Positions 5,543 to 24,253 of a DNA stretch of 32,026 bases are shown one piece after another. Position 1 is the first letter of the stretch. Every line of letters begins with the position of its first letter. Under the pieces are notes generated by a model. It was not told where the DNA came from. It ran no database searches and was given only the letters and a program-made list of their open reading frames with translations. Source of the DNA: Candidatus Nezhaarchaeota archaeon WYZ-LMO8 (GTDB lineage: Archaea; Thermoproteota; Methanomethylicia; Nezhaarchaeales; WYZ-LMO8); contig QNVF01000013.1 of the NCBI GenBank assembly GCA_004347965.1, positions 1-32,026 on the forward strand. Direction: 5' to 3'. Position numbers and translations under genes: made by a program.

Positions 5543-5920
5543 ATGAGCCTAGAAGAGGCACAAATCCTTAGAGAGAGAGCTAAAGCATTCTTGAAAAACG
5601 CTGAGAGCCTTTTCAAAGAAGGTGTATATGACCTTGCAGCATTTAATGTTGAGCAATATTGCCAGCTAATGCTTAAGTATAAGCTGTTAGTTAAGACCGG
5701 GACGTATCCAAGAACTCACTCAATAATAAGGCTTGTGAGGGAGCTATCTAAGATAGATGAAAAGGCAGGTCAACTTCTTCGAGACATGATAATGGTTACT
5801 AAGATAGAGGATGCTTATATAGGCTCAAGGTACCTACCACGCAGGTACGAAAAAGAAGAGGTTGAGGCCATGCTTAAATACGCTAAAGAGGTTTTCGAGG
5901 TCGTGACGAATGAGCTTTGA
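5543..5920 (+). CDS. HEPN domain protein (thermophile HEPN type)
   Basis: Motifs YDLAAFNVEQ, LK, PRTHS and YIGSRY. Overlaps the downstream MNT gene by 11 nt. Confidence 0.85.
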   Translation: MSLEEAQILRERAKAFLKNAESLFKEGVYDLAAFNVEQYCQLMLKYKLLVKTGTYPRTHSIIRLVRELSKIDEKAGQLLRDMIMVTKIEDAYIGSRYLPRRYEKEEVEAMLKYAKEVFEVVTNEL

Positions 5921-6236
5921 TTTGTACATTGAGCGTGGGCTTAGGGACTTAGAGGCCATGAAGAACTACGTGGCAATCGCTAAGAAGGTCAAGGACATAG
6001 TATTAAGTTATGCTCCCGACGCTAGAGTATACGTGTTTGGCTCTGTAGTGGAAGGAAGGTATACAGCAAGTAGCGACATAGACATACTGATAGTGGCCAG
6101 CTTAGAGGACGAAGAGATTTATAGGATGAAGTCGAGAATTTACGAGGAACTTGATGCACCACTACAACTGCATGTAGTACATCCAACTAAGCTATGCTGG
6201 TACACCAAATTTGTAAGCAAGCTCGTAGAGGTCTAG
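5910..6236 (+). CDS. Minimal nucleotidyltransferase (MNT), putative antitoxin
   Basis: VYVFGSVVEGRYTASSDIDILI matches the GS-x10-DxD motif of the Pol-beta superfamily. 108 aa, coupled to the HEPN gene. Confidence 0.88.
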   Translation: MSFDLYIERGLRDLEAMKNYVAIAKKVKDIVLSYAPDARVYVFGSVVEGRYTASSDIDILIVASLEDEEIYRMKSRIYEELDAPLQLHVVHPTKLCWYTKFVSKLVEV

Positions 6237-7392: not shown

Positions 7393-7650
7393 TACCATGA
7401 GGTTGAGAGACAGTAAGGGCAGTATTTGACTACGTCAACATATGTGACAGAGAAGATCTGGTAAAACACCATTTAACTATCATAGCCCAGATGTGAAAAT
7501 CCCCTCATAGTTGAAGTCATGATAGCTTTAAACGAGGACTAAACATCCCTCCTTAAGAAAGCCTAAAAGAGGGTTACATAGCTGAAGTAAACATATCCTA
7601 TTGGAAGAAGTAATCCATCATTCAATAGCACATGAAGCTTTGAAAATTAA

Positions 7651-7725
7651 CGGGCCCGGGGGGACTTGAACCCCCGACCTCCGGCTCCGAAGGCCGTTGC
7701 TCTATCCTGGCTGAGCTACGGGCCC
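7651..7725 (-). tRNA. tRNA-Arg (anticodon TCG), intronless, CCA not encoded
   Basis: Minus strand folds as GGGCCCG-TA-GCTC-AGCCAGGATA-GAGC-A-ACGGC-CTTCGGA-GCCGG-AGGTC-GGGGG-TTCAAGT-CCCCC-CGGGCCC-G. The A20 Arg identity base is present. Confidence 0.96.
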
Positions 7726-7746
7726 ATTTTCTGAATGTGCAGAGGC

Positions 7747-7754
7747 GATAAAAA
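7747..7754 (-). promoter_or_regulatory. Putative TATA box of tRNA-Arg(TCG)
   Basis: TTTTTATC on the minus strand, ending about 21 nt upstream of the tRNA 5' end. Confidence 0.4.
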
Positions 7755-8069
7755 TGTTAAGTTGATTTATGCTTAATTATTGACTCACCCTCGTTGAAGC
7801 TTACACGAATTTTTAGGAAACCCCATCTTCACACATCATCTATAAAACATGTTTACCTGCAGTCTCACTAACTATAGTTCATTTTGCCCTAAAATTTTAG
7901 TTATAGGGATGAATGCTGAGAAAAGCTTTAGTTTCTACAAGGTCATAGTTTTGTTAATAAGTAAATGCAAAAATGTGAATTTATTGACTTTAAATGGATA
8001 AAATAATTTCCATAGTATATGCCTTTAAAGAAAAATTTTTAACATATTGTAGAGATTAGTAGAAGACTG

Positions 8070-9923
8070 GTGTTTAAGTTGGAGCTAAGAGTTTTAAGGG
8101 TTAACTTAAGCAAAGGAATGCTTCGTGATGAGGTTTTACCAAAAGGGTTTGTGGAGAACTTTATTGGCGGTAAAGGCTTTGCTTGGCTTCTCGCTAAGGA
8201 GTTAAAGCCTAATGTTGATCCTCTAAGTCCAGAGAACAAGATAATATTTGCTTCAGGTCCTCTTACCGGATCGGGGGCTCCAGGTTTCTCAGGTAGACAC
8301 GTTGTTATAACGAAGTCCCCGCTAACTAACATTTTTCTTGATACTTATGCTGGCGGTTTCTGGGGAGCTAGACTAAGATTTGCTGGTTATGACGCTATAG
8401 TAATAGAGGGTAAGTCAGAAAAGCCTGTCTACTTATGGATTCACGATGGAGTAGCTGAAATTAAAGATGCTCAAGATATATGGGGTAAAACCGTAAGTGA
8501 AACAGATAGGCTTGTGAAAAAAGATGTGGGAGAAAAAGACACTAGCGTGGCATCTATAGGGATTGCAGGCGAAAACATGGTGAGGTTTGCGTGCATCGCA
8601 AATGATGGTGGCAGAGAAGCTGGTAGAGGTGGTGCTGGAGCAGTAATGGGCTCAAAGCTTCTTAAAGCGATAGCTGTTACTGGCAAGCCAAGCGATAAGG
8701 TATCGAGGGTTACGATAGCAAATAGAGAGAAGTTCGAGGAAGCATGTAATGAGCTACGTGATTTGCTAGCGAAGAACCCTCTTACAAGCATTCTGCTTCC
8801 GAGTCTTGGAACACCCGGTTTTGTCAACGTTGCTAATGCACTTGGTGGTTGGAGAGTTAGAAACGCTAGGGAAGGTGTATTTGAAAGAGCTGAGGAGATT
8901 AGTGGAGAAACTATGAAGGGAAAGATCTTTGTACGTAGCACCGCATGTTATGGTTGTCCAATAGGGTGCCGAAAAATTTCTCAAGTTAAAGAGGGACCAT
9001 ATGCTTGTACGGTTGAAGGACCTGAATTTGAGTCTATATGCTTGTTAGGAGCTAACTGTGGAATTGGCGACCTAGAACCTTTAGCGTATGCTGCGTATCT
9101 ATGTGATGAACTAGGAATGGATACCATATCAACAGGTGCAGTAATAGGCTTTGCCATGGAACTCTATGAGAGAGGAATTATTTCTAAAACTGAAACCGAA
9201 GGTTTAGAACTTAAGTTTGGAAATTACGGAGCTCTAATAGAAATGATTAGAAGAATAGCAGGGAAAAGGGGGTTTGGTTCTATACTAGCCGAGGGGGTTA
9301 AGAGAGCATCTCAGAAGATAGGTCGGGGCTCTGAGTACTATGCTGATCACATCAAGGGTCTTGAATTACCAGCTTGGGAGCCTAGGGCTTTCTGGGGTCA
9401 TGCTTTATCAATGTGTTTAAGCGATAGAGGAGCATGCCATACACACTCACCTGTACTAGACTTAGACATGTCAGGCAAGCTTGACAGATTCTCTATCGAA
9501 GGTAAGCCAGAAGCCGTTAAGCAAGGTGAAGAGTTTACTGCTGCCAAGGACACACTCATTCATTGCCTATTCGTATCTCAATTCGCACAGCTATCGGCGT
9601 CTTTCTGTGCAATGCTGGTCTCATCTGCTGTCGGAATAGAATTTAGCGAAAAAAGCTTCCTGCTTGTGGGAGAACGATTAATAAATTTAACCAGGATGTT
9701 CAACGTGCGTGAAGGAGTCACGAGAAGGGATGATTATCTTCCAAAGAGGTTAATGGAACAGGTACATACTATAGGGCCTACGAGCGGGAAGGTCTTAAGT
9801 GAGGAACTTCTCGACAAAATGTTGGATAGATATTACGAACTAAGAGGTTGGGATGTTAAGACCGGAGTGCCATTAAAAGATAAGCTTAGGGCTTTAGGAT
9901 TGCTGGAGTCTGATAATCTCTAA
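8070..9923 (+). CDS. aor: Tungsten-containing aldehyde:ferredoxin oxidoreductase family protein
   Basis: Motifs TKSPLT, AGRGGAGAVMGSKLLKAI, CYGCPIGC (Fe-S ligands), GPEFE, GMDTIS, DRGACH and YYELRGWD. 617 aa. Confidence 0.93.
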   Translation: MFKLELRVLRVNLSKGMLRDEVLPKGFVENFIGGKGFAWLLAKELKPNVDPLSPENKIIFASGPLTGSGAPGFSGRHVVITKSPLTNIFLDTYAGGFWGARLRFAGYDAIVIEGKSEKPVYLWIHDGVAEIKDAQDIWGKTVSETDRLVKKDVGEKDTSVASIGIAGENMVRFACIANDGGREAGRGGAGAVMGSKLLKAIAVTGKPSDKVSRVTIANREKFEEACNELRDLLAKNPLTSILLPSLGTPGFVNVANALGGWRVRNAREGVFERAEEISGETMKGKIFVRSTACYGCPIGCRKISQVKEGPYACTVEGPEFESICLLGANCGIGDLEPLAYAAYLCDELGMDTISTGAVIGFAMELYERGIISKTETEGLELKFGNYGALIEMIRRIAGKRGFGSILAEGVKRASQKIGRGSEYYADHIKGLELPAWEPRAFWGHALSMCLSDRGACHTHSPVLDLDMSGKLDRFSIEGKPEAVKQGEEFTAAKDTLIHCLFVSQFAQLSASFCAMLVSSAVGIEFSEKSFLLVGERLINLTRMFNVREGVTRRDDYLPKRLMEQVHTIGPTSGKVLSEELLDKMLDRYYELRGWDVKTGVPLKDKLRALGLLESDNL

Positions 9924-10250
9924 CGTTAGTAGCCAAAATCACTCAATTTTCTTTGAACATAAACAATTATTTTATAAGGATCTTGAGTCGATCTCTTAGT
10001 GTTATTTAGTCTTACCTCTTTTTGAAGGTGTTAAGGAAACTGCTTGTCGTAAGACATGACTATGAACGTCTACATTAGAGAGGATTTTTTCTACTTGCTG
10101 GGATACGTACAAATCATAAATCAAGGTTGGAGTCATTTTAGAGCATAAATGTCCTATAACATTACAGTATTTATTAGTTAGAAAGAAAAGAGAATTTAGG
10201 TTAGTTAATCATATAATGTCGAGTTAAGATGCGTGTTATAGATGCTTCAT

Positions 10251-11666
10251 CTAGATTCTTTTCTCAAGCTCTTTAACTAAGTCTCTGAAAATCTCATAAA
10301 CCTTATCCAACAAGTCTTTCGTTATCACAAGTGGCGGCATGAATCTAAAGACTTGCCCCCATCTACCACACATCAATGCAAGTACTCCTTTATCTCTCAT
10401 ACGTTGTGCTAACCACACCATATTCTCAAGAGACATAGGCTCTTTCGTTCTTTTATCTTTGACAATCTCTACTCCTATCATTAGCCCTAAGCCCCTGACT
10501 TCGCCAACGATTTTAGTCTCATCTTCAAGCTCCTTTAACATCTTCATGAAGTAACTTCCTAGCTTAGATGCTCTTTCATCTAACTTATACCTCTTCATTA
10601 ACTCTATGTTCTTTAAGGCTACAGCACATCCTAAGGCATTTCCAGCGAAGGTTACTGGTTGGGAGGCTTTCGGAAGCTTATCCATTATTTTTTTCAATCC
10701 AACGACTGCAGCTACAGGAAAATCTCCTCCTAAAGCTTTTCCTAGGTTTAGAAGGTCAGGCGTCACATCCCAATGTTCAACAGCGAACCACTTACCAGTT
10801 CTGCAGAAGCCGCTCTGAACCTCATCATCTATGAATACTACATCATTTTCTCTGCAAACTTTCCAAACCCACCTAACAAAGTCCCTTGGCGGTACCACAT
10901 AACCTCCTTCACCTTGAACTGGCTCCATTATCACGGCTGCTGGTTTATCTACAAGACCTGTACCTGGCTTTGTTATAAGATCTTCAACGTATCTAGCACA
11001 TTGCAGATCGCAATCCGGATATCCCTTTTGCTTAAAAGCGCATCTATAGCAGTAAGCATATGGAGCAAAGTGTATTCCCGGTACGAGTATTGGAAGCCCT
11101 CTTTTATATGCTGGGTTGGTCGTTAAGGCTAATACACCTGCTGTTATGCCATGATATCCTCCTTGGAAGGCTATTATCTCTGTTCTTCCCGTACACCACC
11201 TGGCAAACTTAAGACACATTTCAGCTGCGTCGCTACCACTCATTGCAAAAGCAACTCTGACGTTACCTTTCATCTCTCCAGGAGCAATCCTTGAAAGCTC
11301 TTCTATTAGCTCAACTCTTCTTGGACTTGGCATATCAGCTGTATGCATAAGCTTTTCTGCTTGACTTTTTATCACTTCAACTATCTCTGGATGGCTGTGA
11401 CCAACTGCATTCACAGCTATAGCTGCAGTCATGTCGATGAATATATTGCCATCGGGATCCATTATTGTCGCTCCACGTGCCTCTTGCCATACGAAAGGTA
11501 TTATGTATGGTGCTAAGAGCGTGACAGTCTCAAGTTCATAAACCTTCTTAAGGATTTCGCTAGCTTTAGGTCCCGGAACTGTTTCAGTTATTATCTTAGG
11601 AGCCTCAGGATACGATAATTTACGAATTTCCTCTTCGTAGGGGAATTCCATAAATTTTTCCCTCAT
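10251..11666 (-). CDS. Class III PLP-dependent aminotransferase (GabT-like, substrate unknown)
   Basis: Motifs DPDGNIFID, GHSHP, SGSDA, GYHG, EPVQGEGG, DEVQSGFCRTG, LGKALGG (PLP lysine), TFAGN and RFMPPL. Confidence 0.92.
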   Translation of the reverse strand: MREKFMEFPYEEEIRKLSYPEAPKIITETVPGPKASEILKKVYELETVTLLAPYIIPFVWQEARGATIMDPDGNIFIDMTAAIAVNAVGHSHPEIVEVIKSQAEKLMHTADMPSPRRVELIEELSRIAPGEMKGNVRVAFAMSGSDAAEMCLKFARWCTGRTEIIAFQGGYHGITAGVLALTTNPAYKRGLPILVPGIHFAPYAYCYRCAFKQKGYPDCDLQCARYVEDLITKPGTGLVDKPAAVIMEPVQGEGGYVVPPRDFVRWVWKVCRENDVVFIDDEVQSGFCRTGKWFAVEHWDVTPDLLNLGKALGGDFPVAAVVGLKKIMDKLPKASQPVTFAGNALGCAVALKNIELMKRYKLDERASKLGSYFMKMLKELEDETKIVGEVRGLGLMIGVEIVKDKRTKEPMSLENMVWLAQRMRDKGVLALMCGRWGQVFRFMPPLVITKDLLDKVYEIFRDLVKELEKRI

Positions 11667-11688
11667 TCCCTTTACTGCTGTGAAAATT

Positions 11689-11705
11689 TTTATAAAGCTT
11701 TCTCC
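11689..11705 (-). promoter_or_regulatory. BRE-TATA promoter of the aminotransferase gene (probably leaderless or short-leader mRNA)
   Basis: Minus strand reads GGAGAAAGC-TTTATAAA, ending about 23 nt upstream of the ATG at 11666. The same GGAGAAAG BRE precedes the permease TATA. Confidence 0.6.
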
Positions 11706-11831
11706 TTGTGTAGGGAAAATTTTTTTCTATGAAAATAGTGTTGTAACTTTGCAAAGAGATAGATTTAAGGGAAAGATTTTGTCTCAGAACCAATTGTGCT
11801 CTATTACAAGAGCTTACCTCCGGTGTTGTAG

Positions 11832-12341
11832 ATGAGCTCGGTTAAGGTTGATGACATGGATCTTAAGATATTAGAGTCCTTAAGGAGGAATGGTAGAGTC
11901 TCGTATAGGGAAGTAGCAGAGAAGTTGGGTGTAGGTGTTGCAACTGTTTATAAGAGGGTTAAGAGACTTGAAAAACTTGGCATAATAAGAGGATATACAG
12001 CAATAATAGATGAGTCTAAGCTAGGCAAAAATATTGTTGGTTACATAGGTCTTGAAGTAAGACCGGTGGATACGAATAAGGTATTAGAGGAACTACTAAA
12101 GATGGATGAGGTTGTTGAGATCGCAACCGTTACTGGGACTTTTGATGTGCTTATTAAGGTGAAAGTTAAAAGTCTAGATGAGCTGTGGAACTTCATTTAC
12201 GTCAAGACACCCAAGATTAAAGAAATACTTAAGACGACGACGATGATAGCCATAAACGTCGTAAAAGACGAGTTAGGTTGCTCAGGGTTTAATGCGATCG
12301 ACAACAAGCATGGTATAGGTTTTCGCGACACCAGTCATTGA
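11832..12341 (+). CDS. Lrp/AsnC family transcriptional regulator
   Basis: N-terminal HTH (DLKILESLRRNGRVSYREVAEKLGV...RVKRLEKLGII) and C-terminal RAM domain (VTGTFDVLIKV). Divergent from the aminotransferase. Confidence 0.93.
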   Translation: MSSVKVDDMDLKILESLRRNGRVSYREVAEKLGVGVATVYKRVKRLEKLGIIRGYTAIIDESKLGKNIVGYIGLEVRPVDTNKVLEELLKMDEVVEIATVTGTFDVLIKVKVKSLDELWNFIYVKTPKIKEILKTTTMIAINVVKDELGCSGFNAIDNKHGIGFRDTSH

Positions 12342-12554
12342 ACCTATAGCTCCTAGAATCTCGCTGAACTCTCTTATGGACCTAGCTTGAAGCTTTATGA
12401 GAAGGTCGTACTCCCCTGTTATGCCGTAAACCTCCTTAACCGAGCCAATCTTGATTATATTTTTGACTACCTGTGGATAGTGCTCTCTTGGATGAATGCT
12501 TATGCAAACGTAAGCTAGGACTTCTCGAGGAACTTTAATTCGACTCATAATCAC
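12282..12554 (-). CDS. Stand-alone Lrp/AsnC effector-binding (RAM) domain protein, no HTH
   Basis: Motifs LAYVCI, VKEVYGITGEYDLLIKL and GVAKTYTMLV. Follows the permease on the same strand. Start is the GTG at 12554 or the ATG at 12548. Confidence 0.85.
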   Translation of the reverse strand: MIMSRIKVPREVLAYVCISIHPREHYPQVVKNIIKIGSVKEVYGITGEYDLLIKLQARSIREFSEILGAIGSMTGVAKTYTMLVVDRIKP

Positions 12555-12582
12555 AAAAGTATAGAATTTAGGTAAAGAATTT

Positions 12583-13953
12583 TTAGCTTAAACTTTCCTT
12601 TCGTGCTCTTAGATAGTATATTAATAGGGCGACTAGGAATAATGCCACGGAGTACACTCCTCCATATATGAGAATGTTGATATTTCCGTAGGGTGGCGCT
12701 ACTGTGTATACTAGAATGAATAGTGTTGATATGACCCCTATGACAGCTAGTATGGGAACTTTAGAAGGCCCTCCCATTTTGAACGGTCTTGGATCTTGAG
12801 GTCTCTTTATTCTTAATGCTATGACGTTTATGAACATGAACAAGTAGATTATTAGGAATACGAAGCAACAGGACAACGCTAAGCTGAATGGAGCTTCCAA
12901 TCCTAAGAAAGTTACTGCTGATCCTATAACAAGGAGCATGAGAACATAGAGTATTATTAGTGAGCCCCATGGGGTCCTGAATCTTGGATGAAGCCAGCCA
13001 AATATCTTGGGTAAATACCCCTCTCTTGACATGCCATATAGTACTCTCGTAGCCCCTGCCATAACCGAATTTATTGTGGTCCCAGTAGCAAATAGGCTTA
13101 TAATAGCGAACCATACCCCCCCGATGGGTCCAAGCAAGTATTCTGCAGCACCCACATGATAAGGCTCACTAAGGAGAACTTCTCGTGGAACTGACGCAGC
13201 CCACGATAACCCCAAGAACTGTTCAACTGCAAAGAGCGTTATCATTGACGTTATCATGGCCAAAGGTATGGTCTTACTCGGATTTTTAACTTCCTCCGCT
13301 AGTGGCGCAGCAACTTCTACTCCTATAAAGAGCCATACTGCTGCAAGCATAAGTACAGCAATGCTTGGGAGGCCTGCAGGAGTTCCAGGGTAAAGTTCTG
13401 ATGCAGGTGGGAAGAGGAACGTCTCAGTTAGATAACTCCAGTCAGGTTTACCTAGCGTAAGACCTACTACGGCCATCGCTACATACGAGCAAACCATGAT
13501 TATTAGTAAAGCCAGCTGCGTATAGCCAGCTACAACTATTCCAAGCATGTTAGTTATCATGAATATTGTTAACACTAAGATGGCCCAACCCCACCATGGT
13601 ACTTGAGGAAAGAAATGCTCTAGTATTATACCTGCAAGAGTGGACTCTGCGGGAAAACCGAAGATGTCCTTAAATCCATACCATAGCCCAACACTTATCC
13701 CAGCAGCTCTTCCAAGAGCCTTAGTAGTGTAAAGCTCTAAGCTGCTTGCCCTTGGATAAGTTGTTGCCAGCTCGCTAAAGGCTAAGCACACTAATATGAT
13801 GAATAGTAAGGCTAGTATATGAGTTACCGTAAAGCCAGCGCCAAGGTCGCCAAAACCTAAGCTTAGAGTCATTAATGTCGTTGAACATGTGACTAATCCT
13901 AGACACATTGCCCACGTTGTCCAAAAGCCTAGGGCTCTTTTAAGCTCAGCCAC
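12583..13953 (-). CDS. APC family amino acid/amine permease
   Basis: About 12 hydrophobic segments. Motifs LKRALG, FSELATTYP, FIGVE..AEEVKNPSKTIP, RVLYGMSREGYLP and HPRFRTPW. Confidence 0.92.
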   Translation of the reverse strand: MAELKRALGFWTTWAMCLGLVTCSTTLMTLSLGFGDLGAGFTVTHILALLFIILVCLAFSELATTYPRASSLELYTTKALGRAAGISVGLWYGFKDIFGFPAESTLAGIILEHFFPQVPWWGWAILVLTIFMITNMLGIVVAGYTQLALLIIMVCSYVAMAVVGLTLGKPDWSYLTETFLFPPASELYPGTPAGLPSIAVLMLAAVWLFIGVEVAAPLAEEVKNPSKTIPLAMITSMITLFAVEQFLGLSWAASVPREVLLSEPYHVGAAEYLLGPIGGVWFAIISLFATGTTINSVMAGATRVLYGMSREGYLPKIFGWLHPRFRTPWGSLIILYVLMLLVIGSAVTFLGLEAPFSLALSCCFVFLIIYLFMFINVIALRIKRPQDPRPFKMGGPSKVPILAVIGVISTLFILVYTVAPPYGNINILIYGGVYSVALFLVALLIYYLRARKESLS

Positions 13954-14006
13954 GATATTCCCTCTCTAAGCGAGTTTTTACTGAATAATTTTACCTTTGA
14001 AAAATT

Positions 14007-14022
14007 ATTTATAACTTTCTCC
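14007..14022 (-). promoter_or_regulatory. BRE-TATA promoter of the permease operon
   Basis: Minus strand reads GGAGAAAG-TTATAAAT, about 55 nt upstream of the GTG start, which has its own GAGGGA RBS. Confidence 0.55.
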
Positions 14023-14112
14023 TAAAAATTTAGTGATAATTTATCCTACTGACAAGTAGTTGAGAAAAAATTTTTATGCTATATTAATGAGGCTAATATC
14101 GTGGTGGTTTAG

Positions 14113-15117
14113 ATGCACGAAACCTTAATACTAACTGATGAAGAGGTTAGAAAGCTTCTATCAATGCCAGAGGTACTTAATGTTGTTGAAGAAGCTTTTA
14201 GAGAAAAGGCACTTAATAGAGTGCAGATGCCCCCTAAGATTTATCTTTTCTATAAGAAGTATGATGGTGACCTGAGGGTAATGCCATCATATCTTGAAGA
14301 GCTTGATATATCAGCTGTTAAGATCGTGAATGTTCATCCCCAAAATAGGCAAAGGTTTGAATTACCAACGGTCATGGCTATTGTCGTTCTTGTAGATCCC
14401 AAGACGGGTTTTCCATTGTCAATAATGGGTGGCAGCTGGCTTACAGCTATGAGGACTGGTGCTGCTGGTGGTATAGCTGCTAAGTATCTTGCTCGCGAAG
14501 ACTCTGAGGTCATATGTTTTATTGGTGCAGGAACACAAGCTAAGACTCAGCTAATGGCTTTGAGTAATGTCTTAAGAAACATCAAGAGAATTCAAGTTTA
14601 TGACTTAGTAAAAGAAGCTTCTAAAAGCTTTGTTGAATACGCCTTAACAGTATTAAAAGATATCAAGGTGAAAGTTTGTGAATCTCCACGAGATGCCGTA
14701 AGTAGTGCAGACGTAATTGTAACGGCTACTCCATCGAGACAACCAATTGTGATGTCTGAGTGGGTTAGTAATGGAGCTCACTTTAATTGTATAGGTGCTG
14801 ATGCCCCGGGTAAGCAAGAGATTGACCCAAAAATCCTGTTGAGGTCAAAGATAGTAGTTGATGACATGGAACAAGCTCTTCATAGTGGTGAGGTTAATGT
14901 TCCTATAGCTAAGGGTATGCTTAAAAAAGAGCAGATTTATGGAGAGTTAGGGGAGATCGTTGCCGGCATTAAGAGAGGTAGAGAATCGAGAGATGAAATA
15001 ACGGTTTTTGTGTCTACAGGATTATCAATACAAGATGCTGTCGCCGCTAAATTAGCTTATGACAAAGCCTTGTCAAGAGGCTTCGGAGTTAGGTTAAAAA
15101 TTGTCATTGCTTCTTAG
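14113..15117 (+). CDS. ala: Archaeal alanine dehydrogenase (ornithine cyclodeaminase/mu-crystallin family)
   Basis: Motifs MPPKIYL, DLRVMP, KIVNVHP, RTGAAGGIAAKYLAR, IGAGTQA, IGADAPGKQE and STGLSIQD resemble the Archaeoglobus-type AlaDH. Confidence 0.8.
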   Translation: MHETLILTDEEVRKLLSMPEVLNVVEEAFREKALNRVQMPPKIYLFYKKYDGDLRVMPSYLEELDISAVKIVNVHPQNRQRFELPTVMAIVVLVDPKTGFPLSIMGGSWLTAMRTGAAGGIAAKYLAREDSEVICFIGAGTQAKTQLMALSNVLRNIKRIQVYDLVKEASKSFVEYALTVLKDIKVKVCESPRDAVSSADVIVTATPSRQPIVMSEWVSNGAHFNCIGADAPGKQEIDPKILLRSKIVVDDMEQALHSGEVNVPIAKGMLKKEQIYGELGEIVAGIKRGRESRDEITVFVSTGLSIQDAVAAKLAYDKALSRGFGVRLKIVIAS

Positions 15118-15166
15118 TAACTTTCACGTCACATTCCACCCGCTGTCATGATTTATGAGGTGATGT

Positions 15167-15871
15167 CTACAAAATTCTTGCATCGTAAGCCCTTACGAGT
15201 CCTCTCACTAAATCTCTGAGAGCCTCCTCTTGGTCCTTTGCCCTTACAACTCCTGATGCCACTAAGACTCCTTGAGTTCCAAGCTTTATTGCAGCCTCCA
15301 CATCGTCGCTACTTGTTATTCCAGCTCCACATATCACCACAACACTTGGGTTCACGCTCTTAATAAGTCTTATAGTGTTAGTTATCACTTCGGGCTTAGT
15401 TTTCGAAACCGCTTTTCCAGTCCCTATAAGCTCCGGTGGCTCTATCGCTATGAAGTCAGGTCTAAGGGCTGAAAGTGAGGCAGCAACTTCTGGGGTATTT
15501 GCACACGCTACCACCTCAAGACCTATGCTGGCAGCCCTCTTAATTACTTCATCTACCTCATCAATTCGAAGCCTCTTCTCTGAATGATTAATCAAAGTCC
15601 CTACAGCTCCAGCTTCCTTAACAGCTTCCATTGATATGCTCCCGGTGTAAGCACCAGGAGGATAGGGATCAACGTGTTGAGCTAGAACTGGGATAGAGAC
15701 CATAGAGACAATTTTAGCTATGTCTACAGCTTGGGGGGCCACAGCTATATTCACCCCAAATTCATTAGCTATTCTCTCGCTCTTCTTCGCAAGTTCTAAA
15801 GCTCTCTGACCAGTTGCTTCGAGATACGTCTTGAAGTTTACGATAATTAATGGTGTTTTAAGCTTCTTCAT
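15167..15871 (-). CDS. tpiA: Triosephosphate isomerase (archaeal type)
   Basis: Motifs NFKTY, AQHVD, INHSE, IEPPELIGTG, GAGI and VLVASG. Likely start is the ATG at 15871; the ORF track extends to 15895. Confidence 0.96.
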   Translation of the reverse strand: MKKLKTPLIIVNFKTYLEATGQRALELAKKSERIANEFGVNIAVAPQAVDIAKIVSMVSIPVLAQHVDPYPPGAYTGSISMEAVKEAGAVGTLINHSEKRLRIDEVDEVIKRAASIGLEVVACANTPEVAASLSALRPDFIAIEPPELIGTGKAVSKTKPEVITNTIRLIKSVNPSVVVICGAGITSSDDVEAAIKLGTQGVLVASGVVRAKDQEEALRDLVRGLVRAYDARIL

Positions 15872-16030
15872 ACCAATATCATGACTCAAGTGCACTTAAA
15901 AATATTGTTATTTGTAATTTCCTTTGAAGTGGGGGTGTTTATGGGCTCTATATACTTCTTAGAGCAGAGAGTCTAAACGCATTTCGATTTATGAACTTTC
16001 ACGGACTTTCAAGTGTTGATAAAGGTTAAA

Positions 16031-16405
16031 TTAAGCTTGCATCTTCCTAACTCTTTCAAATATCTCAAGCCAGGTCAATACGCAACGCCCAATTTCGTAA
16101 AGCCTATCAAGATCACTTTCAAACTTAGCCATATTGGTGAGCTCCATTATTTTCTGGCTTGCCGTTGATGTAAGCTCACTTATAGCTTGAATTTGAGTAA
16201 TCTTGGTTATGTCCTCTCCCTCTTTCACGAAAATAACTCTCTTCTCACATCCAGGGCAAAATATCTCTCCACTCTTCAGTTTAAAGAGAGGAGAGTTGCA
16301 TATCGGACAGACATCAGCTAGCATGGTAGCACCGCTTCTTAGCAGATCAACCATTCGCTTCATCCTAATAGCTTCATCCTTCTCTCTACTCACGAAAATT
16401 CTCAC
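16031..16405 (-). CDS. UPF0148 / SSSCA1-like zinc-ribbon protein
   Basis: LLRSGATMLADVCPICNSPLF...IFCPGC. Adjacent to UPF0147, as is common in archaea. Confidence 0.85.
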   Translation of the reverse strand: MRIFVSREKDEAIRMKRMVDLLRSGATMLADVCPICNSPLFKLKSGEIFCPGCEKRVIFVKEGEDITKITQIQAISELTSTASQKIMELTNMAKFESDLDRLYEIGRCVLTWLEIFERVRKMQA

Positions 16406-16413
16406 CGATCCTC

Positions 16414-16683
16414 TTAATCCTTAATCTGTTCTAAGATGCTTACTGCTTGCCATATAGCTGTTCTAGCGAAGAGAGGCATGTTAGGATCCTGACTACATTC
16501 ATCAAGTATGCTTATAGCGTTTGAAGCTCTAACACCAGGAGTATATTTCTTAGTCTTCAATATCTTTATTGATTCGCTACAAGCTCTTCTAATGTTCCTA
16601 GGAACTCCAAGATCATCGGCAATCCTCTGTAAAACCATAATTGCCTGCTGGATTTTTTGCTCAGCATCGCTCTCACCAGACAT
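16414..16683 (-). CDS. UPF0147 family protein
   Basis: Motifs D..VPRNIRR, VRASNAISILDE and DPNMPLFARTAIWQ. Confidence 0.92.
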   Translation of the reverse strand: MSGESDAEQKIQQAIMVLQRIADDLGVPRNIRRACSESIKILKTKKYTPGVRASNAISILDECSQDPNMPLFARTAIWQAVSILEQIKD

Positions 16684-16815
16684 AAATCAACACCCTCATA
16701 AAGTTAAGGAGGGTTGTCAGAACAAAACCTAGTAAGAAAGGCTTAAACCCCTTCTTAAAAATCTTTCATATAAAGCTCTAAGTCAAAAACAAGTGTTGTC
16801 AGCAGGGGTTCTAGA

Positions 16816-18234
16816 TTGAATGATATATCAGTGATTATTAGAGGTATATATACAACAGCTCTCGTTAAGCTGCTGCTTGACCATGGCTTCAAGATAGCTA
16901 AGCCATCAGCTACCATAGCTGAGAGATTTAAACTTAAAGATGTATCTAATGAGTGGGATGCGAGGATTAGGGATTATAGACCTTTAAAGGGCTCTATAGT
17001 AATTGACGGTCCAAAGGCCCACGAAGTTGTTGTTGTCTTAATGGGGAAGCTGCCAGATGCCATCTTGAATTATAGGAAGGTAGGCTACGAGATATACAAA
17101 GGGATTGTAGAGAAGGTTGACGAGAGAGGAAGCTACGTTAATTACGGGAATGGAGTAGGCCTATTACCAGAAAAGTTAAGTGAAGGTCAAGAGGTAATAG
17201 TTTCACCAATTAAGGATGAACCTCGTAGAGATAACCATGTTAGTCTGACTAGGAGAGTAAGGATAGTTGGCTACTATGCTGACTTAGTTAAAGATGGTTG
17301 GATTTCAACACCCAAGGATGTGCCTACAAGCATGGCGAGCAGGTTGATGAACTTGGGTCATTTAATGAAGCCTCCTGGCTGGGGTGTGCAGTGGAAGAGG
17401 GAAGCATCAGAAGCCAGTACAAGCGATCTACTTGAGGAGCTGCAGAGGTTAAGGGAAAAAGCCATTGAGGTGGTACAACAATCATTAGAAGTTAAGGCAC
17501 CCGCTCTAATCTACGAACCGTCTACAAGTTACATTGTAATATTGCCTTACGATAGTAAGAAGTACTTAGACGGTATGAGAGGGCTCGTAGTACCGACCAT
17601 GCCCAAACACCACTTAATAAAGAGTTGGGGGAGGAGGTATGCATACGCCGTTGATGTTATTGAGAAATTAATGGCAGTTCTCAGCGAAGACATAGGTCAT
17701 ATAGCCTCAAATATCATCGTGAAGGGGGCAGTTAAAAGAGGTGCTAAGATTGCTATAGAACATGTAAAGCCTGACGGTAAGATCTATAAGCTATCTCCTG
17801 GCATTGTAGAAGACTTCGATGAAGATACTATGACGATAACGTTGAAGAGGAGGTTCAAGGGCGGTGGGGTTTATAACGGTCTTGGTGTCCCGAAAGAGCA
17901 AGGAGACTACGGATTGTCAACGTATAGAATAGGTGTCCCTCTTTCGAAGACTGCATACTACAGCGAGAAGGGAGCTTTAAAGGGGATTTACGTAAACATA
18001 TCAACGCCAGTGGAGATTGCTCCAAGAAAGGTGAGGTACGTAGATCTCGAAGTTGATGTGATCGCCAAGCCTAACGGTGAAGTTCGAGTTTTAGACGTCG
18101 ACAAAGCAAGAGAGCTAATGCATAAAGGCATAATAACCAGCAGGCTCTACCACGCTATAATGGAGATAGCTGATAAAGTAAAGAAAACCCTTTCTGAAAG
18201 AGGGGATGTGGATCTAGACCTTAAGCTTTTCTAA
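16816..18234 (+). CDS. fau-1: FAU-1 family AU-rich RNA-binding ribonuclease (RNase G/E-like N-terminus plus DUF402)
   Basis: N-terminal IRGIYTTAL, GWGVQWK, PTMPKHH, IEHVKPDG, GxYNGLGVPKEQGDY, YVNISTPVE and YVDLEVDV. Confidence 0.88.
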   Translation: MNDISVIIRGIYTTALVKLLLDHGFKIAKPSATIAERFKLKDVSNEWDARIRDYRPLKGSIVIDGPKAHEVVVVLMGKLPDAILNYRKVGYEIYKGIVEKVDERGSYVNYGNGVGLLPEKLSEGQEVIVSPIKDEPRRDNHVSLTRRVRIVGYYADLVKDGWISTPKDVPTSMASRLMNLGHLMKPPGWGVQWKREASEASTSDLLEELQRLREKAIEVVQQSLEVKAPALIYEPSTSYIVILPYDSKKYLDGMRGLVVPTMPKHHLIKSWGRRYAYAVDVIEKLMAVLSEDIGHIASNIIVKGAVKRGAKIAIEHVKPDGKIYKLSPGIVEDFDEDTMTITLKRRFKGGGVYNGLGVPKEQGDYGLSTYRIGVPLSKTAYYSEKGALKGIYVNISTPVEIAPRKVRYVDLEVDVIAKPNGEVRVLDVDKARELMHKGIITSRLYHAIMEIADKVKKTLSERGDVDLDLKLF

Positions 18235-18640
18235 CCCTAACTATCAAGAATCCTTGCTTAAACGATACTCTAAGAGATGTTGGATCAAGGGGTTCCGGGA
18301 ACCTTATAACCTTTCTATATCGACTAAATTCTGTACTTCTTTGTATAGTTCCCCAACGCTCAAATTTAACTTTCTCCTTAATCTCAGCTTCAACCTTTAA
18401 TGCGTCCTCTCCTTCAACGTAGACGTTGATCTTCCCCTTATCGACTAGAGGTAGGTCTACTACAACTTCATACTCGTCTCCAAGATCCCTTATGCTAGAT
18501 AGTGGTGTAAGACAGCATTCTCTAGCATCCCACATCGGCTCATCGAATTCTTCGATTAGTGACGTTAATCTATCAACTTCCTCTCTAAGCTCCTCTATGA
18601 GGTCGGAAATTGACTGGAAGAGCATCCTTCTCCTGAACAC
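18221..18640 (-). CDS. Small heat shock protein (Hsp20/alpha-crystallin)
   Basis: Motifs EYEVVVDLP, YRKVIRFP and SFKQGFLIVRVRK. GTG start after a GGAGGTGA RBS. Confidence 0.85.
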   Translation of the reverse strand: MFRRRMLFQSISDLIEELREEVDRLTSLIEEFDEPMWDARECCLTPLSSIRDLGDEYEVVVDLPLVDKGKINVYVEGEDALKVEAEIKEKVKFERWGTIQRSTEFSRYRKVIRFPEPLDPTSLRVSFKQGFLIVRVRKA

Positions 18641-18653
18641 GGTACATCACCTC

Positions 18654-19400
18654 CTACGTGTACATCAATGGAACCTCATACTCGTGAGTCTTCTTCATTT
18701 GCTTTAAGGCTTCAGCTGTACGCTTCATAAGCTCACGCGTCCTCACTCTTATCATCTCGGCTTCGTCTAATAGAGGCTTTACATCTATTTCTAACCCAAG
18801 AATTTTATTCAATGCTAATAAGGCCTGAGCAGCCGCACCAGGATCTGGGTATTCGAGGAAGCACTGAGCTAAGAGCATGATGGATGGAAGACCTCTTCTA
18901 ATCCCCTCTCGCATCATTATGGCTGCAGGTCCTACAACAAACCCCTCTTCGAAGCTCTTTACATTGGCTTTTGTAAGTACATCACTAAGTTCTGTAGCTC
19001 CAGCTATACCATAGACTTCTGGAACCTCTATGTCTAGCCTATTCGGTATAGCGATGCCGGTTATTGTAATTATCCCCTTAACACCCTCCTTAATAGCCCA
19101 ATCAATAACACTCCTACCCAGTGGATATACGAGGGATGGATGTACAGGAACCTCGCTACTTAGAACCATTAAACCTTCCCTACCAAAGAACCTTACGGGA
19201 TCATAAACTCTTGATTGATGAACTACGATTACTGGTGGAAGAAGTTCGCTCTCCACGTGGGCTATGGCCTCTAAACCTAGTGCTTTAACTATGTGAGCAG
19301 CAGAGATAGCACCCACGAGACCAGCATCTGGAAGTCCAACTATCAACCAACTGTCCTTGAACCCTCTACCTACAATCTTCACATCCAAGCTAAACACCAA
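18654..19400 (-). CDS. Proteasome assembly chaperone PAC2 family (PbaA/PbaB-like) with C-terminal HbYX motif
   Basis: Motifs GLPDAGLVGAI, PVRFF and YPDPGAA. C-terminus is ...PLMYT. Confidence 0.88.
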   Translation of the reverse strand: MVFSLDVKIVGRGFKDSWLIVGLPDAGLVGAISAAHIVKALGLEAIAHVESELLPPVIVVHQSRVYDPVRFFGREGLMVLSSEVPVHPSLVYPLGRSVIDWAIKEGVKGIITITGIAIPNRLDIEVPEVYGIAGATELSDVLTKANVKSFEEGFVVGPAAIMMREGIRRGLPSIMLLAQCFLEYPDPGAAAQALLALNKILGLEIDVKPLLDEAEMIRVRTRELMKRTAEALKQMKKTHEYEVPLMYT

Positions 19401-19487
19401 GAATAGAATTCCCGCTTACGAGATAAAACTAGCGTGTCATAGAAAACTTAACATTTAAGAGTATGCTCTAAAATTCACAAAAAACAA

Positions 19488-19589
19488 GGCCCGGTCGTAT
19501 AGAGGCCTGCCTGCGTGGGAGCCGTACAACCCGGTCAAGTATCCCGGCCTTTCGAGCCGGAGACCCGGGTTCAAATCCCGGCCGGGCCA
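19488..19589 (+). tRNA. tRNA-Glu (anticodon TTC) with a 27-nt intron in the D-loop
   Basis: Removing 19503..19529 gives the 75-nt sequence GGCCCGG-TC-GTATAG-CCCGGTCAAGTAT-C-CCGGC-CTTTCGA-GCCGG-AGAC-CCGGG-TTCAAAT-CCCGG-CCGGGCC-A, a typical crenarchaeal-like tRNA-Glu. Confidence 0.93.
19503..19529 (+). other. tRNA intron at non-canonical position 15/16
   Basis: AGGCCTGCCTGCGTGGGAGCCGTACAA. Central helix GTAT/GTAC, bulges AG^A and AA^C, inner helix GGC/GCC; a relaxed BHB motif. Confidence 0.8.
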
Positions 19590-19761
19590 TCACTTCTTGT
19601 CTTCTCCACCTAAACCTTAATGACCTCACTTATTCACCTTTCACTGCTTGAATTCTCTCAGGAACTTTAAATCAAGGTATATGGAGTAAAAACATACTTT
19701 TTATGCTAGCTCATGGGCTCGTTCTGCAGAGAATAGATTCTTTAAGGCGCAAAGCATCGAT

Positions 19762-22099: not shown

Positions 22100-23203
22100 A
22101 TGAGGACCTTATCTATAAATGATTTAAAGGACATAGTCGTAGGAGCTACATTCTTAGGTAGTGGTGGTGGCGGCTCGCCGGAGAATGGTCTTAAACTTGT
22201 CGAAGCAATAGCCAACGTGACTAAAGAAATAAAGCTTGCTTCTCCTGATGAAGTTGCAGATAATGATTATGTGGCAATGATAGCAGGTATGGGTGCCCCT
22301 AAAGCGCTTAAAGAGAAGGGCTTCGGTCCCGAGGCTCTTCATGCCTTTCATGGTTTAGAAAAGCTTTACTCTATGATAGGCGTAGAGTTCAAGTATATAA
22401 TGCCAGGGGAAACTGGAGGCTTTAATTCTATAACGCCAATATATGTGGCTGCCGTAAGGAATCTTATTGTAGTTGATGCTGATGGAACTGGTGGTAGGGC
22501 TGTCCCGGAGCTAGGGACTACACTCTATAACCTTTACGGCTTGCCTGTATCACCATTTGTCGTAGCCGACAAAGTAGGAAACATAGTTGTAGGCTGGCTT
22601 GCAAACCCCCTAGATGGTCATACAGCTGAAGAAATAGCGAGACACGTAACTGTCGCTTTCGGTATGCTGTCTGGCTTAGGGACCTGGGTTGTCACTGGTT
22701 GGCAAATAAAGAACTTCTTAGAACCTCATGTTTTAACAAGGTCTCTAGATATTGGCAGAGCCTTAAGAGAAGCAAAGGAGAAGGGCAAGGATCCGGTGAA
22801 GACTGTTATCGATGTAGTTAAGGGCTATGAGCTCTTCAGAGGGAGGGTTGAAAAAGTGGAGCTAAGGACTGTCGCAGGTTTTGACTTTGGCAGAGTAGTA
22901 CTCAATGGTGTGGAGGGCTATGCAGGAAAGAAGTTCTACGTGGACTTCAAAAATGAAAACATGATTGCATGGAAGAAGCTCGGAGAACCTGCCGCGATGG
23001 TTCCAGACATGATATGTTGGCTTACGCTTCAAGGAGAAGCATTAACGAACGCGGACATTAAGGAGGGTATGGAACTAGCGGTCATAGGTATACCAGCTTC
23101 AGATAGATGGAGGAGACATCCGAAAGCGTTTGATGTGTGGAGGCACATATTAGATAAGATGGAGTACAAAGGAGACTACATCTGCATCGAGAAGCTTCTG
23201 TAA
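22100..23203 (+). CDS. DUF917 family protein (S-methyl thiohydantoin desulfurase-like fold)
   Basis: Motifs GATFLGSGGGG, MGAP, ETGGFN, DADGxGxRAVPEL, FKNEN and VPDMI. GGAGG RBS. Confidence 0.88.
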   Translation: MRTLSINDLKDIVVGATFLGSGGGGSPENGLKLVEAIANVTKEIKLASPDEVADNDYVAMIAGMGAPKALKEKGFGPEALHAFHGLEKLYSMIGVEFKYIMPGETGGFNSITPIYVAAVRNLIVVDADGTGGRAVPELGTTLYNLYGLPVSPFVVADKVGNIVVGWLANPLDGHTAEEIARHVTVAFGMLSGLGTWVVTGWQIKNFLEPHVLTRSLDIGRALREAKEKGKDPVKTVIDVVKGYELFRGRVEKVELRTVAGFDFGRVVLNGVEGYAGKKFYVDFKNENMIAWKKLGEPAAMVPDMICWLTLQGEALTNADIKEGMELAVIGIPASDRWRRHPKAFDVWRHILDKMEYKGDYICIEKLL

Positions 23204-23266
23204 TTCAAAACTTAACTTTTTCTTTGAACACTTTCTTTAAGCATCCAATCATTTGAGGGGCATGAA

Positions 23267-23809
23267 TTGAAAGATATTGAATTAAGCAGCATCGCTGATG
23301 TGTTGGCTAATGTGATTAAAACGAGACGAACGATAAGAAGGTTTAAGAAGGATGTGAAAGTGCCCAAGGAGGTCATTGAAAGGATACTAGACATCGCTCG
23401 ATGGTCTCCCAGTGGTAGTAATGCTCAGGAGTGGAGGTTCATAGCGATAATGGATGAAAGGCTTCTCAGAGCTATGAAAATGTTCTCGCCAGGATGGCTT
23501 GGTGAGGCTCCTGCAGCCATAGTCGCATGTGCTGATAAAGATTGGTCCTACAGAGTTGCAGGTGTCCTAGGCAGAGATAAAATGTACTTAATCGATGTAG
23601 GTATAGTCGTGCAAACGATAGCCCTCTTAGCTCATGCCATGGGTTTAGGAACAAACATAATAATGTCGTTCTCTCAAGAAGCGATATCGGAGCTCCTCAA
23701 TGTACCGCATAATTGGGAAATCGTGGTCATAATAGCTATTGGTTACCCTGATGAAGAGCCGAAACCTCCACCTCGTATGTCGCTAAGTGAGTTAGTTATA
23801 TGGAGGTAA
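23267..23809 (+). CDS. Nitroreductase family flavoprotein
   Basis: Motifs IKTRRTIRRF, SPSGSNAQEWRF, DVGIVVQTIALLAHAMGLGT and IAIGYP. Confidence 0.9.
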   Translation: MKDIELSSIADVLANVIKTRRTIRRFKKDVKVPKEVIERILDIARWSPSGSNAQEWRFIAIMDERLLRAMKMFSPGWLGEAPAAIVACADKDWSYRVAGVLGRDKMYLIDVGIVVQTIALLAHAMGLGTNIIMSFSQEAISELLNVPHNWEIVVIIAIGYPDEEPKPPPRMSLSELVIWR

Positions 23810-23815
23810 GAGGTT

Positions 23816-24118
23816 ATGAAGGTGGACGAGGAAAGAAAGATGCGTATCTACGACTTCATAGCATACTTGATTTCAAGTGCAAGAGGTCTACTTGTAGAGC
23901 CACAGGTGTACGGGCCATTTAGATGTCTAGATGCAGTGTCAAGGTTCATACATTTGCTTAGTGACTTAGGAATTAAAGATCCCTACCTCGATGAATTAAA
24001 AGACGAAGTAGACAAAGGTAAGTACTTACTGCTAATTGATGAAAGTAAGTTTAAAGACTTCATAATACATTTAAATGTGAAGTTAGCTCGAAAAATAAAG
24101 GAGGACTTAAACCTATAG
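23816..24118 (+). CDS. Small helical protein, probable DUF6092 family
   Basis: YLISSARGLLVEPQVYGPFRCLDAVSR resembles the SARGL..EP..YGP.R..D pattern I recall for DUF6092. Starts 6 nt after the nitroreductase stop, with a GAGG RBS. Confidence 0.65.
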   Translation: MKVDEERKMRIYDFIAYLISSARGLLVEPQVYGPFRCLDAVSRFIHLLSDLGIKDPYLDELKDEVDKGKYLLLIDESKFKDFIIHLNVKLARKIKEDLNL

Positions 24119-24253
24119 CCCCTCCTTATTATCATAGCCCTGTTTTACACTTCACAAATTGAATGAACTTGACAGACTAGCTTTTCTTACGTAATTATCG
24201 ATTCTAAAACTTAAATAGTCTTTATCTTGGAAAAATTAGAAGGGGAGTTTGTT

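Follow-up and report, generated by a model that had tools for sequence, protein, structure and literature searches.

We analysed contig QNVF01000013.1 of Candidatus Nezhaarchaeota archaeon WYZ-LMO8 in its entirety (32,026 nt; hereafter the window), which belongs to a genome of 1.35 Mb that is 93% complete (G000). Between a tRNA-Arg gene and the gene for triose-phosphate isomerase (tpiA) lie six open reading frames (ORFs), which encode an oxidoreductase of the AOR family, a class-III pyridoxal phosphate (PLP) transaminase (AT3), an Lrp/AsnC regulator (Lrp), a stand-alone RAM protein, a permease of the APC superfamily (APC) and an alanine dehydrogenase (AlaDH) of the OCD/mu-crystallin fold. An earlier interpretation drawn from the letters alone (the sequence-only reading) had taken these genes to be a self-contained module of amine catabolism. 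The six ORFs lie exactly where it had put them, the gene identities that it had assigned are correct and each has a strong family match (Pfam/NCBIfam), and the two divergent pairs that it had described, AT3 with Lrp and APC with AlaDH, are present (Table 1). We find that AT3-Lrp-RAM-APC-AlaDH (10251-15117) is one conserved unit that occurs at more than one chromosomal site, and that AOR is a variable but recurrent partner of it.

A five-gene block at a variable site

The window was compared with a set of 41 related genomes that includes G000. Ten of these (G000-G009) form the family f1, in which six genomes (G001-G006) share the genus of G000, and G007, G008 and G009 represent other genera. 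Only G007, G008 and G009 have AT3 orthologues, with 81-86% identity; none was found in the six same-genus genomes, and AT3 is present in 4 of the 10 family genomes. Both G009 and G008 carry AT3-Lrp-RAM-APC-AlaDH in the order and orientation of the window, where a creatininase-family gene flanks it on one side and a PaaK-like gene on the other, with neither AOR nor tpiA nearby. The window and G009 match in a single nucleotide alignment (window 10263-15077; 4,853 columns, 77% identity) that begins at the 3' end of AT3, reaches the 3' end of AlaDH and goes no further, its ends coinciding with gene borders. Because this one alignment runs from border to border, the five genes behave as one unit.

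The ancestral AlaDH locus of the family has the order ThyA-like, creatininase, AlaDH, ASCH, YdjM, a 235-aa protein and PaaK-like, an order found in G006, in G004 and on contig C56 of G000. In G000 this locus holds AlaDH alone (C56:30590-31591, between the creatininase-family and ASCH-domain genes), and the complete block, with a second AlaDH that is 72% identical to the first, stands at the tRNA-Arg|tpiA site. Phylogenetic analysis placed the C56 copy as sister of the G006 copy (97/94 support) and the window copy outside the genus clade formed by the C56, G006 and G004 copies (92/88 support). The block thus includes an AlaDH that G000, with its resident copy on C56, does not strictly need.

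In same-genus G006 and G004 the tRNA-Arg gene adjoins tpiA at a spacing of about 325-350 bp, and the genes flanking the site are collinear with the window; tpiA is collinear in G009 as well. A blastn comparison of the window with L033, the G006 locus, returned homology only at 7632-7759 and 15165-19623, and in G006 a mere 289 bp separate the tRNA segment from tpiA, the island being absent. The adjacency of tRNA-Arg and tpiA and the collinear flanks in G006 and G004 therefore define 7760-15164 as a 7.4-kb island. The AOR|AT3 and AlaDH|tpiA junctions are spanned by DNA contigs of a separate study without a mismatch (run X10, records 3 and 8), which rules out an assembly chimera. No signs of a mobile element were found at the block ends in the comparison between the window and G009, which revealed neither remnants of donor flanks nor repeats.

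The linkage extends beyond these genomes. In the more distant L036/L130, AT3, AlaDH and APC are 77%, 53% and 55% identical to their window counterparts and still lie together, next to a glutamine synthetase gene and an Lrp gene. Among the AT3 orthologue lineages with enough flanking sequence, to which our counts are restricted, an APC-type permease adjoins AT3 in 7 of 7 (window, G009, G008, G007, L036/L130, L131/L132 and L134), and AlaDH lies within 10 kb of AT3, completing an AT3-APC-AlaDH trio, in 4 of 5 (window, G009, G008 and L036/L130).

The tRNA-Arg|tpiA site itself is a hot spot for metabolic cargo. In G009 it holds the AOR orthologue, a BKACE enzyme, two CoA-transferase subunits and a 172-aa unknown protein (L032:10010-15608); the BKACE enzyme scored 450 bits against a cut-off of 430 with NF053538 (3,5-dioxohexanoate:acetyl-CoA acetone transferase).

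Table 1. Features of the variable site and its borders in contig QNVF01000013.1
Feature	Position	Strand	Evidence or remark
tRNA-Arg(TCG)	7650..7726	-	ARAGORN; left border of variable site
Variable island, 7.4 kb (AOR and five-gene block)	7760..15164		blastn: no homology in G006 (L033)
AOR, 617 aa	8070..9923	+	PF02730 250 bits, PF01314 444 bits
Class-III PLP transaminase (AT3), 471 aa	10251..11666	-	PF00202 365 bits
Divergent AT3/Lrp promoter region	11667..11831		165-bp spacer
Lrp/AsnC (FFRP) regulator, 169 aa	11832..12341	+	HTH_24, HTH_AsnC, AsnC_trans_reg
Stand-alone RAM protein, 90 aa	12282..12554	-	PF01037 alone; same strand as APC
APC-superfamily permease, 456 aa	12583..13953	-	PF13520, PF00324
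Divergent APC/AlaDH promoter region	13954..14112		159-bp spacer
OCD/mu-crystallin-fold alanine dehydrogenase (AlaDH), 334 aa	14113..15117	+	TIGR02371 462 bits
Triose-phosphate isomerase (tpiA)	15167..15895	-	NF003302 312 bits vs cut-off 132; right border, outside module

The transaminase, the alanine dehydrogenase and the linked AOR

AT3 reached no NCBIfam equivalog cut-off; the top model, NF004426, scored 407 bits against 552, and the best 25 of the 69 matched models all fell below. Its best solved relatives are the P. horikoshii broad-specificity racemase (BAR) PH0138 (9wrf, 285 bits) and the ornithine aminotransferase PH1423 (7vno, 280 bits), followed by an Ala/Ser racemase (ASR; 275 bits) and bacterial GabT (about 270 bits). 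Diagnostic residues were surveyed in 121 sequences, namely AT3 and its 120 best-matching homologues, none below 44% identity. The Schiff-base Lys310 in 'LGKALGG' and the pyridine-nitrogen-binding Asp281 in 'DDEVQSG' are invariant in 121 of 121, as is Arg441, and Glu253 is present in 120. In the residue alignment Glu253 lies in 'QGEGG', the same as in PH1423 and GabT, where the racemases have 'QGDAG', and its counterpart in the Ala/Ser racemase is Asp234, the D234A mutant of that enzyme being inactive (PMC6047364; this and the other papers cited by PMC number are quoted from excerpts). With Glu253 in the place of the catalytic Asp, AT3 would fall outside the fold-type-I racemases (BAR/ASR/ILEP) and is transaminase-type rather than racemase-type.

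Residue 174 sets AT3 apart from the named transaminases. E. coli GabT uses the Arg of 'YHGRT' to grip the distal carboxylate of its substrate, and GabT and PH1423 carry 'YHGRT' or 'FHGRT'. AT3 has Ile174 in 'YHGIT', and Arg was found at this position in none of the 121 sequences. Below the equivalog cut-offs and without this Arg, AT3 is not assigned to the GABA, ornithine or acetylornithine transaminase equivalogs, although public pipelines name its clade GABA or diaminobutyrate transaminase. The ornithine (lysine) omega-aminotransferases PH1423 and TK2101 are the closest characterised true transaminases and share 'QGEGG' and the C-terminal Arg with AT3, but they carry 'FHGRT', and AT3 stays at 407 bits on the matching NCBIfam model (cut-off 552). 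To judge from these residues, AT3 is a transaminase-type member of a large uncharacterised class-III clade. A hydrophobic side chain at position 174 speaks against the classical binding mode for GABA, ornithine or lysine and would fit a substrate that lacks a distal carboxylate. Since Ile174 stands where GABA, ornithine and lysine transaminases hold the carboxylate-binding Arg, our guess is that the substrate might be a diamine, a polyamine or an omega-amino acid. A correlation of residue 174 with the partner dehydrogenase, glutamate dehydrogenase (GDH) or AlaDH, was considered and dropped, as the GDH-linked homologue belongs to another class-III subgroup.

The window AlaDH exceeds the cut-off of TIGR02371, the model for archaeal alanine dehydrogenase (409.15 bits), and matches A. 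fulgidus AlaDH (AF1665; 1omo) at 348 bits, ahead of T. litoralis pyrroline-2-carboxylate (Pyr2C) reductase at 286 bits. It shares the fold and family of the A. fulgidus enzyme and keeps its Arg in 'GDLRVMP' and its Asp and Lys in 'GADAPGKQE', a signature that is identical in 11 of 11 aligned copies from the family and order. The corresponding residues of T. litoralis Pyr2C reductase are Leu52, Val224 and Ala228 (PMC4141209). The product of 14113-15117 is accordingly predicted to be an OCD-fold alanine dehydrogenase. The physiological role of archaeal OCD-type AlaDH has been described as unclear (PMC4141209).

The closest solved relative of AOR is P. furiosus AOR (1aor, 496 bits), with formaldehyde oxidoreductase at 313 bits and WOR5 at 251 bits. 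Its AFOR_N and AFOR_C architecture covers residues 7-611, and 'CYGCPIGC' (CxxCxxxC), the distal Cys of 'CLF', the Glu of 'EGPEFES' and the His of 'RGACH' align with 1aor. We take the Cys residues to be [4Fe-4S] ligands and the Glu and His to belong to the active site, as in 1aor, and the metal is presumably tungsten, as assumed from the AFOR family. The enzyme is probably an AOR sensu stricto. G000 has six AOR paralogues, and the window copy forms a clade with its G009 and G005 orthologues and the AOR of the metagenome contig L128 (100/99 support), the other five lying outside. This subclade, distinct from 1aor and tied to a transaminase and permease block, is patchy; it was detected in 9 of 401 genomes of the phylum (E <= 1e-160). 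In family f1 it is found in G000, G005, G007 and G009, and it was not found in G001, G002, G003, G004 or G006, the same genomes that lack AT3.

Members of this subclade are physically tied to block genes in different ways. On L128, whose AT3 is 86% identical, 9 nt, 'GGTGGTGGC', separate the AT3 stop from the AOR ATG on the same strand, and the pair lies at the ancestral AlaDH locus. G007 fits this layout, with AOR-creatininase-ThyA-like on a contig that starts within AOR. In G005 (75% complete), an 84% AOR orthologue, cut by the contig end, is divergent to a 424-aa saccharopine-dehydrogenase-family gene, which is followed by an 82-aa ORF and a 79% APC orthologue (L119:1-4386). Enzymes of the saccharopine-dehydrogenase family form or split C-N bonds next to an aldehyde. 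The G005 gene could, as a single case, be a one-enzyme stand-in for the transaminase/AlaDH pair. A closer assignment of its product failed (55 bits to carboxyspermidine dehydrogenase and generic Atlas clusters only), and no close relative was found in the 41 related genomes.

Three physical arrangements with one AOR subclade (convergent in the window, operonic in L128 and G007, and beside the APC orthologue in G005) are hard to put down to chance, small as the numbers are and related as the genomes are. The L128 operon, the G005 arrangement and the AOR tree mean that AOR can no longer be read as a mere neighbour.

Outside the family, the nearest AOR of the clade (63%) is that of G012 (L206:853-6507), downstream of a gene for a FixC/geranylgeranyl-reductase-like flavoprotein, with a GDH-like gene, broken into two overlapping ORFs, on its own downstream side. 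At four further AOR loci outside the family, with 46-49% identity, no block genes were found nearby.

Regulators, promoters and related gene arrangements

APC reached no NCBIfam cut-off, and its orthologues are confined to family f1 within the 41 genomes (G009 89%, G008 81%, G005 79% and G004 65%). Lrp has the domain structure of its family, with HTH_24 and HTH_AsnC at residues 7-53 and AsnC_trans_reg at 73-142, and it is kept in the block in G009, G008, G007 and L128. The RAM-only protein shares 24% identity with the RAM domain of the adjacent Lrp; its top NCBIfam match, below the cut-off, is the C-terminal part of LysM. The APC and RAM genes lie 28 nt apart on the same strand, and the Lrp and RAM genes overlap by 60 nt at their 3' ends.

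The AT3/Lrp spacer has A/T-rich elements that are conserved with G009 and G008, and the APC/AlaDH spacer has TATA-like elements, 'ATTATTTATAAC' and 'GAAAAAATTTT', that are conserved across three genera. The pattern GAAAAWWTTTT, picked after two of the island sites had been noticed, occurs at 8 sites in the 1.35-Mb genome, three of them in island promoters (8030-8040, which is 30 bp upstream of the AOR start, 11715-11725 and 14064-14074). We rejected it as a shared Lrp box or regulon, since it also precedes unrelated genes (ABC ATPase, UbiD, phosphoribosyltransferase and DUF5305), a point against joint control of the island; it is probably a BRE/TATA-like core element of the promoter. Lrp may control the island, to judge from the position of its gene alone. 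Contigs of one metatranscriptome library (X13) cover AOR, AT3, APC, AlaDH and tpiA at ~99% identity, which, as assembled contigs from a single library, are a weak hint of transcription.

A neighbourhood scan with AT3 as query retrieved 160 loci. A Deltaproteobacteria metagenome-assembled genome (MAG) carries GDH, transaminase, AOR, a periplasmic amino-acid-binding protein and two permease genes of the Liv-type ABC kind on one strand (L081:8623-16476), and a Leptospirales MAG carries a group-II PLP decarboxylase, a class-III transaminase, AOR and a DUF819 membrane protein (L059:8347-14253). On the metagenome contigs L163/L164, an iron-dependent alcohol dehydrogenase (Fe-ADH), AOR and a second Fe-ADH are divergent from a transaminase, with an APC-type permease nearby. 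A design of uptake, transaminase, acceptor-regenerating dehydrogenase and AOR thus appears to recur in distant homologues. The transaminases of these loci belong to other class-III subgroups, so they illustrate a recurring design and not the function of AT3; those of L059 and L081 have 'GAN' or 'GAT' instead of 'GEG' and no aligned C-terminal Arg.

At five of 19 loci with AT3 homologues of ~40% identity, all from Bathyarchaeia (L043, L044, L045, L047 and L049), the homologue adjoins subunits of a 2-oxoacid:ferredoxin oxidoreductase, and an Alba gene stands beside it at four of these five. Apart from this one lineage the neighbours of such relatives are inconsistent, and we abandoned them as a guide to function.

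Two known arrangements resemble the block. In Bilophila wadsworthia, the transaminase Tpa and the alanine dehydrogenase Ald are an experimentally established pairing, in which the gene of an aldehyde-making omega-transaminase stands beside that of an acceptor-regenerating AlaDH in anaerobic metabolism (PMC6386719). AT3 and AlaDH show the same linkage and co-inheritance (four of five lineages, one G009 segment). The window AlaDH differs in having the OCD/mu-crystallin fold rather than belonging to the classical AlaDH family, AT3 comes from a different, uncharacterised clade and its acceptor is a proposal, and the aldehyde would enter AOR here, whereas in Bilophila it meets a reductase and a glycyl-radical lyase. 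The host is an archaeon, and the block adds the Lrp and RAM regulators and the APC permease. The BAR cluster of P. horikoshii, with the transporter PH0137, the class-III-fold racemase PH0138 and the FFRP/DARP regulator PH0140 (PMC13628549), likewise joins a transporter, a class-III PLP enzyme and an Lrp-family regulator in a small archaeal cluster. It differs from the window in the Asp that AT3 replaces with Glu and in its YkvI-type rather than APC-type transporter, and the window adds AlaDH, the RAM-only protein and the AOR linkage.

Elsewhere in the window, overlapping HEPN-domain and nucleotidyltransferase genes form a toxin-antitoxin-like pair at 5543-6236 that is kept in G006. At 22100-25624, genes for an S-Me-THD-like protein (PF06032/PF20906), a nitroreductase, a DUF6092 protein and an NCS1-family permease lie on one strand, a possible small cluster for taking up and converting a compound of the hydantoin or nucleobase kind.

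Proposed amine catabolism, its alternatives and their implications

We regard the region as an accessory metabolic island for the oxygen-independent removal of a primary amino group, at a probability of about one half. The APC permease would import a primary-amine compound, and AT3 would pass its amino group to a 2-oxo acid, leaving an aldehyde. AlaDH would oxidise the resulting alanine to pyruvate, freeing NH3 and NADH, and AOR would oxidise the aldehyde to the acid, reducing ferredoxin. Lrp, possibly modulated by the RAM-only protein, would switch both divergent promoters. An aldehyde as the product of AT3 is suggested by the linkages to AOR and alcohol dehydrogenase, and an amino shuttle through pyruvate and alanine by the AlaDH linkage and, through analogy, the bacterial Tpa-Ald precedent. 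That the AT3 clade, a pyruvate-regenerating OCD AlaDH and a dedicated AOR subclade together make up a relocatable archaeal route from amine to aldehyde to acid is a tentative proposal, which we think rather doubtful as a whole.

Several observations weigh against this interpretation. The Glu of 'QGEGG' and the C-terminal Arg of AT3 are common to PH1423 and GabT, and PH1423 and TK2101 are listed as preferring 2-oxoglutarate, pyruvate being weak and bracketed (PMC9986279, Table 3); pyruvate as the acceptor of AT3, and hence the AlaDH shuttle, therefore stays an inference. A 2-oxoglutarate-dependent AT3 would have no need of AlaDH, and G000 encodes a GDH. The synteny expected by the sequence-only reading, which the trio in four lineages and the G009 match bear out, fails in L131/L132, where no AlaDH lies within 10 kb of the AT3 orthologues (76%). 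G004 pairs an APC (65%) with AlaDH and has no AT3, and such a permease-AlaDH pair could be a simple unit of alanine uptake and oxidation. AOR in the window is convergent with AT3, so no shared transcript is possible; the G009 orthologue (81%) lies 170 kb from the G009 block, and no AOR of the clade was found in G008 (67% complete), though the block is present. The counts are low and come from related genomes, which are not independent of one another. AOR is thus outside the conserved five-gene block, yet it is not a chance neighbour. Of the self-contained six-gene module, the five genes from AT3 to AlaDH hold together and AOR as a block member does not. The pairing of an aldehyde-forming transaminase with AOR gains from the repeated links to one AOR subclade, the product still being a conjecture, and amine catabolism as a whole is partly supported, by the gene identities and the linkage of AT3, APC and AlaDH.

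The same observations could mean that two functions share the locus. AT3 would then be a 2-oxoglutarate omega-transaminase of the GABA, ornithine, lysine or diaminobutyrate type that is recycled by GDH, and APC and AlaDH would be a separate pair for alanine uptake and oxidation or for alanine formation. The motifs that AT3 shares with PH1423 and GabT, the acceptor preference of PH1423 and TK2101, the resident GDH and the G004 pair all suit this explanation, as do the L081 transaminase, which is accompanied by GDH and not AlaDH, and the occurrence of AlaDH across the order, where it is common and stands in unrelated gene contexts. We nevertheless consider it unlikely: AlaDH matches G009 in one segment with AT3, Lrp, RAM and APC despite the resident copy in G000, the trio recurs in L036/L130 with a far more divergent AlaDH and APC, and the distal-carboxylate Arg of GABA- and ornithine-type enzymes is missing from the query and all its surveyed homologues (0 of 121). 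AT3 might instead transaminate an imported hydrophobic L-amino acid to pyruvate, with AlaDH freeing the ammonia, the 2-oxo acid going to 2-oxoacid:ferredoxin oxidoreductases and AOR clearing side-product aldehydes, as proposed for Thermococcales. The best solved relatives of AT3 include enzymes that bind hydrophobic alpha-amino acids (9wrf and the Ala/Ser racemase), residue 174 is hydrophobic and is Met in the broad-specificity racemase, Lrp-family regulators such as PH0140 sense amino acids (PMC13628549), and the five Bathyarchaeia loci adjoin the oxidoreductase in question. The 9-nt AT3-AOR junction of L128 and the Fe-ADH and AOR beside the L164 homologue point to an aldehyde as the direct product, however; the Bathyarchaeia neighbourhood consists otherwise of housekeeping genes and comes from one lineage, and class-I aminotransferases, for which G000 has 8 PF00155 matches, could fill the role. 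Alpha-amino-acid catabolism is in our view quite unlikely, slightly more so than two functions at one locus.

A cluster for D-amino-acid utilisation like that of P. horikoshii, in which AT3 is a fold-type-I racemase, the permease imports D-amino acids and Lrp senses D/L isomers, would be built from the same gene set of transporter, class-III PLP enzyme and FFRP (PMC13628549), and the broad-specificity racemase is the top solved match of AT3. It is very improbable given the Glu253 that replaces the racemase Asp, in whose absence the D234A racemase is inactive (PMC6047364), an AOR linkage that has no role in racemisation, and a different transporter family. Nor do we see much likelihood in a biosynthetic pathway running in reverse, from acid through aldehyde to amine. 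AOR would then reduce the acid, AT3 would use alanine to aminate the aldehyde, AlaDH would replenish the alanine from pyruvate, NH3 and NADH, and the amine would leave the cell through the permease. Each step is presumably reversible in principle. A. fulgidus AlaDH has a far higher catalytic efficiency with pyruvate than with alanine (PMC4141209), but the patchy, accessory nature of the island suits nutrient use over core biosynthesis, and uptake systems and a decarboxylase accompany the transaminase in the distant analogues.

For the amine-catabolic island that we favour, the parts and the logic of joining a transaminase to AlaDH are already known. New are an OCD-fold AlaDH as the transaminase partner, the uncharacterised transaminase clade, the dedicated AOR subclade and the Lrp and RAM regulators, and so is the finding that the block occurs as a unit at different sites of archaeal chromosomes. 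We found no description of such a unit in full-text searches of the literature, subscription journals being outside their scope.

The physiological substrates of most AOR-family paralogues are, to our knowledge, still unknown. The locus offers a testable partnership for one such paralogue and for an archaeal OCD-type AlaDH, and it brings in a transaminase clade without the Arg expected of its label as GABA or diaminobutyrate transaminase. If the proposed pathway is true, it would give archaeal OCD-type AlaDH its first defined physiological role, and the AOR paralogue would gain a substrate class, the amino-aldehydes derived from di- and polyamines and omega-amino acids. A thermostable pair of transaminase and AlaDH is also a cascade of biocatalytic amine chemistry. 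Confirmation would show how hot-spring archaea with small genomes may use amines as an oxygen-independent source of nitrogen, NADH and reduced ferredoxin.

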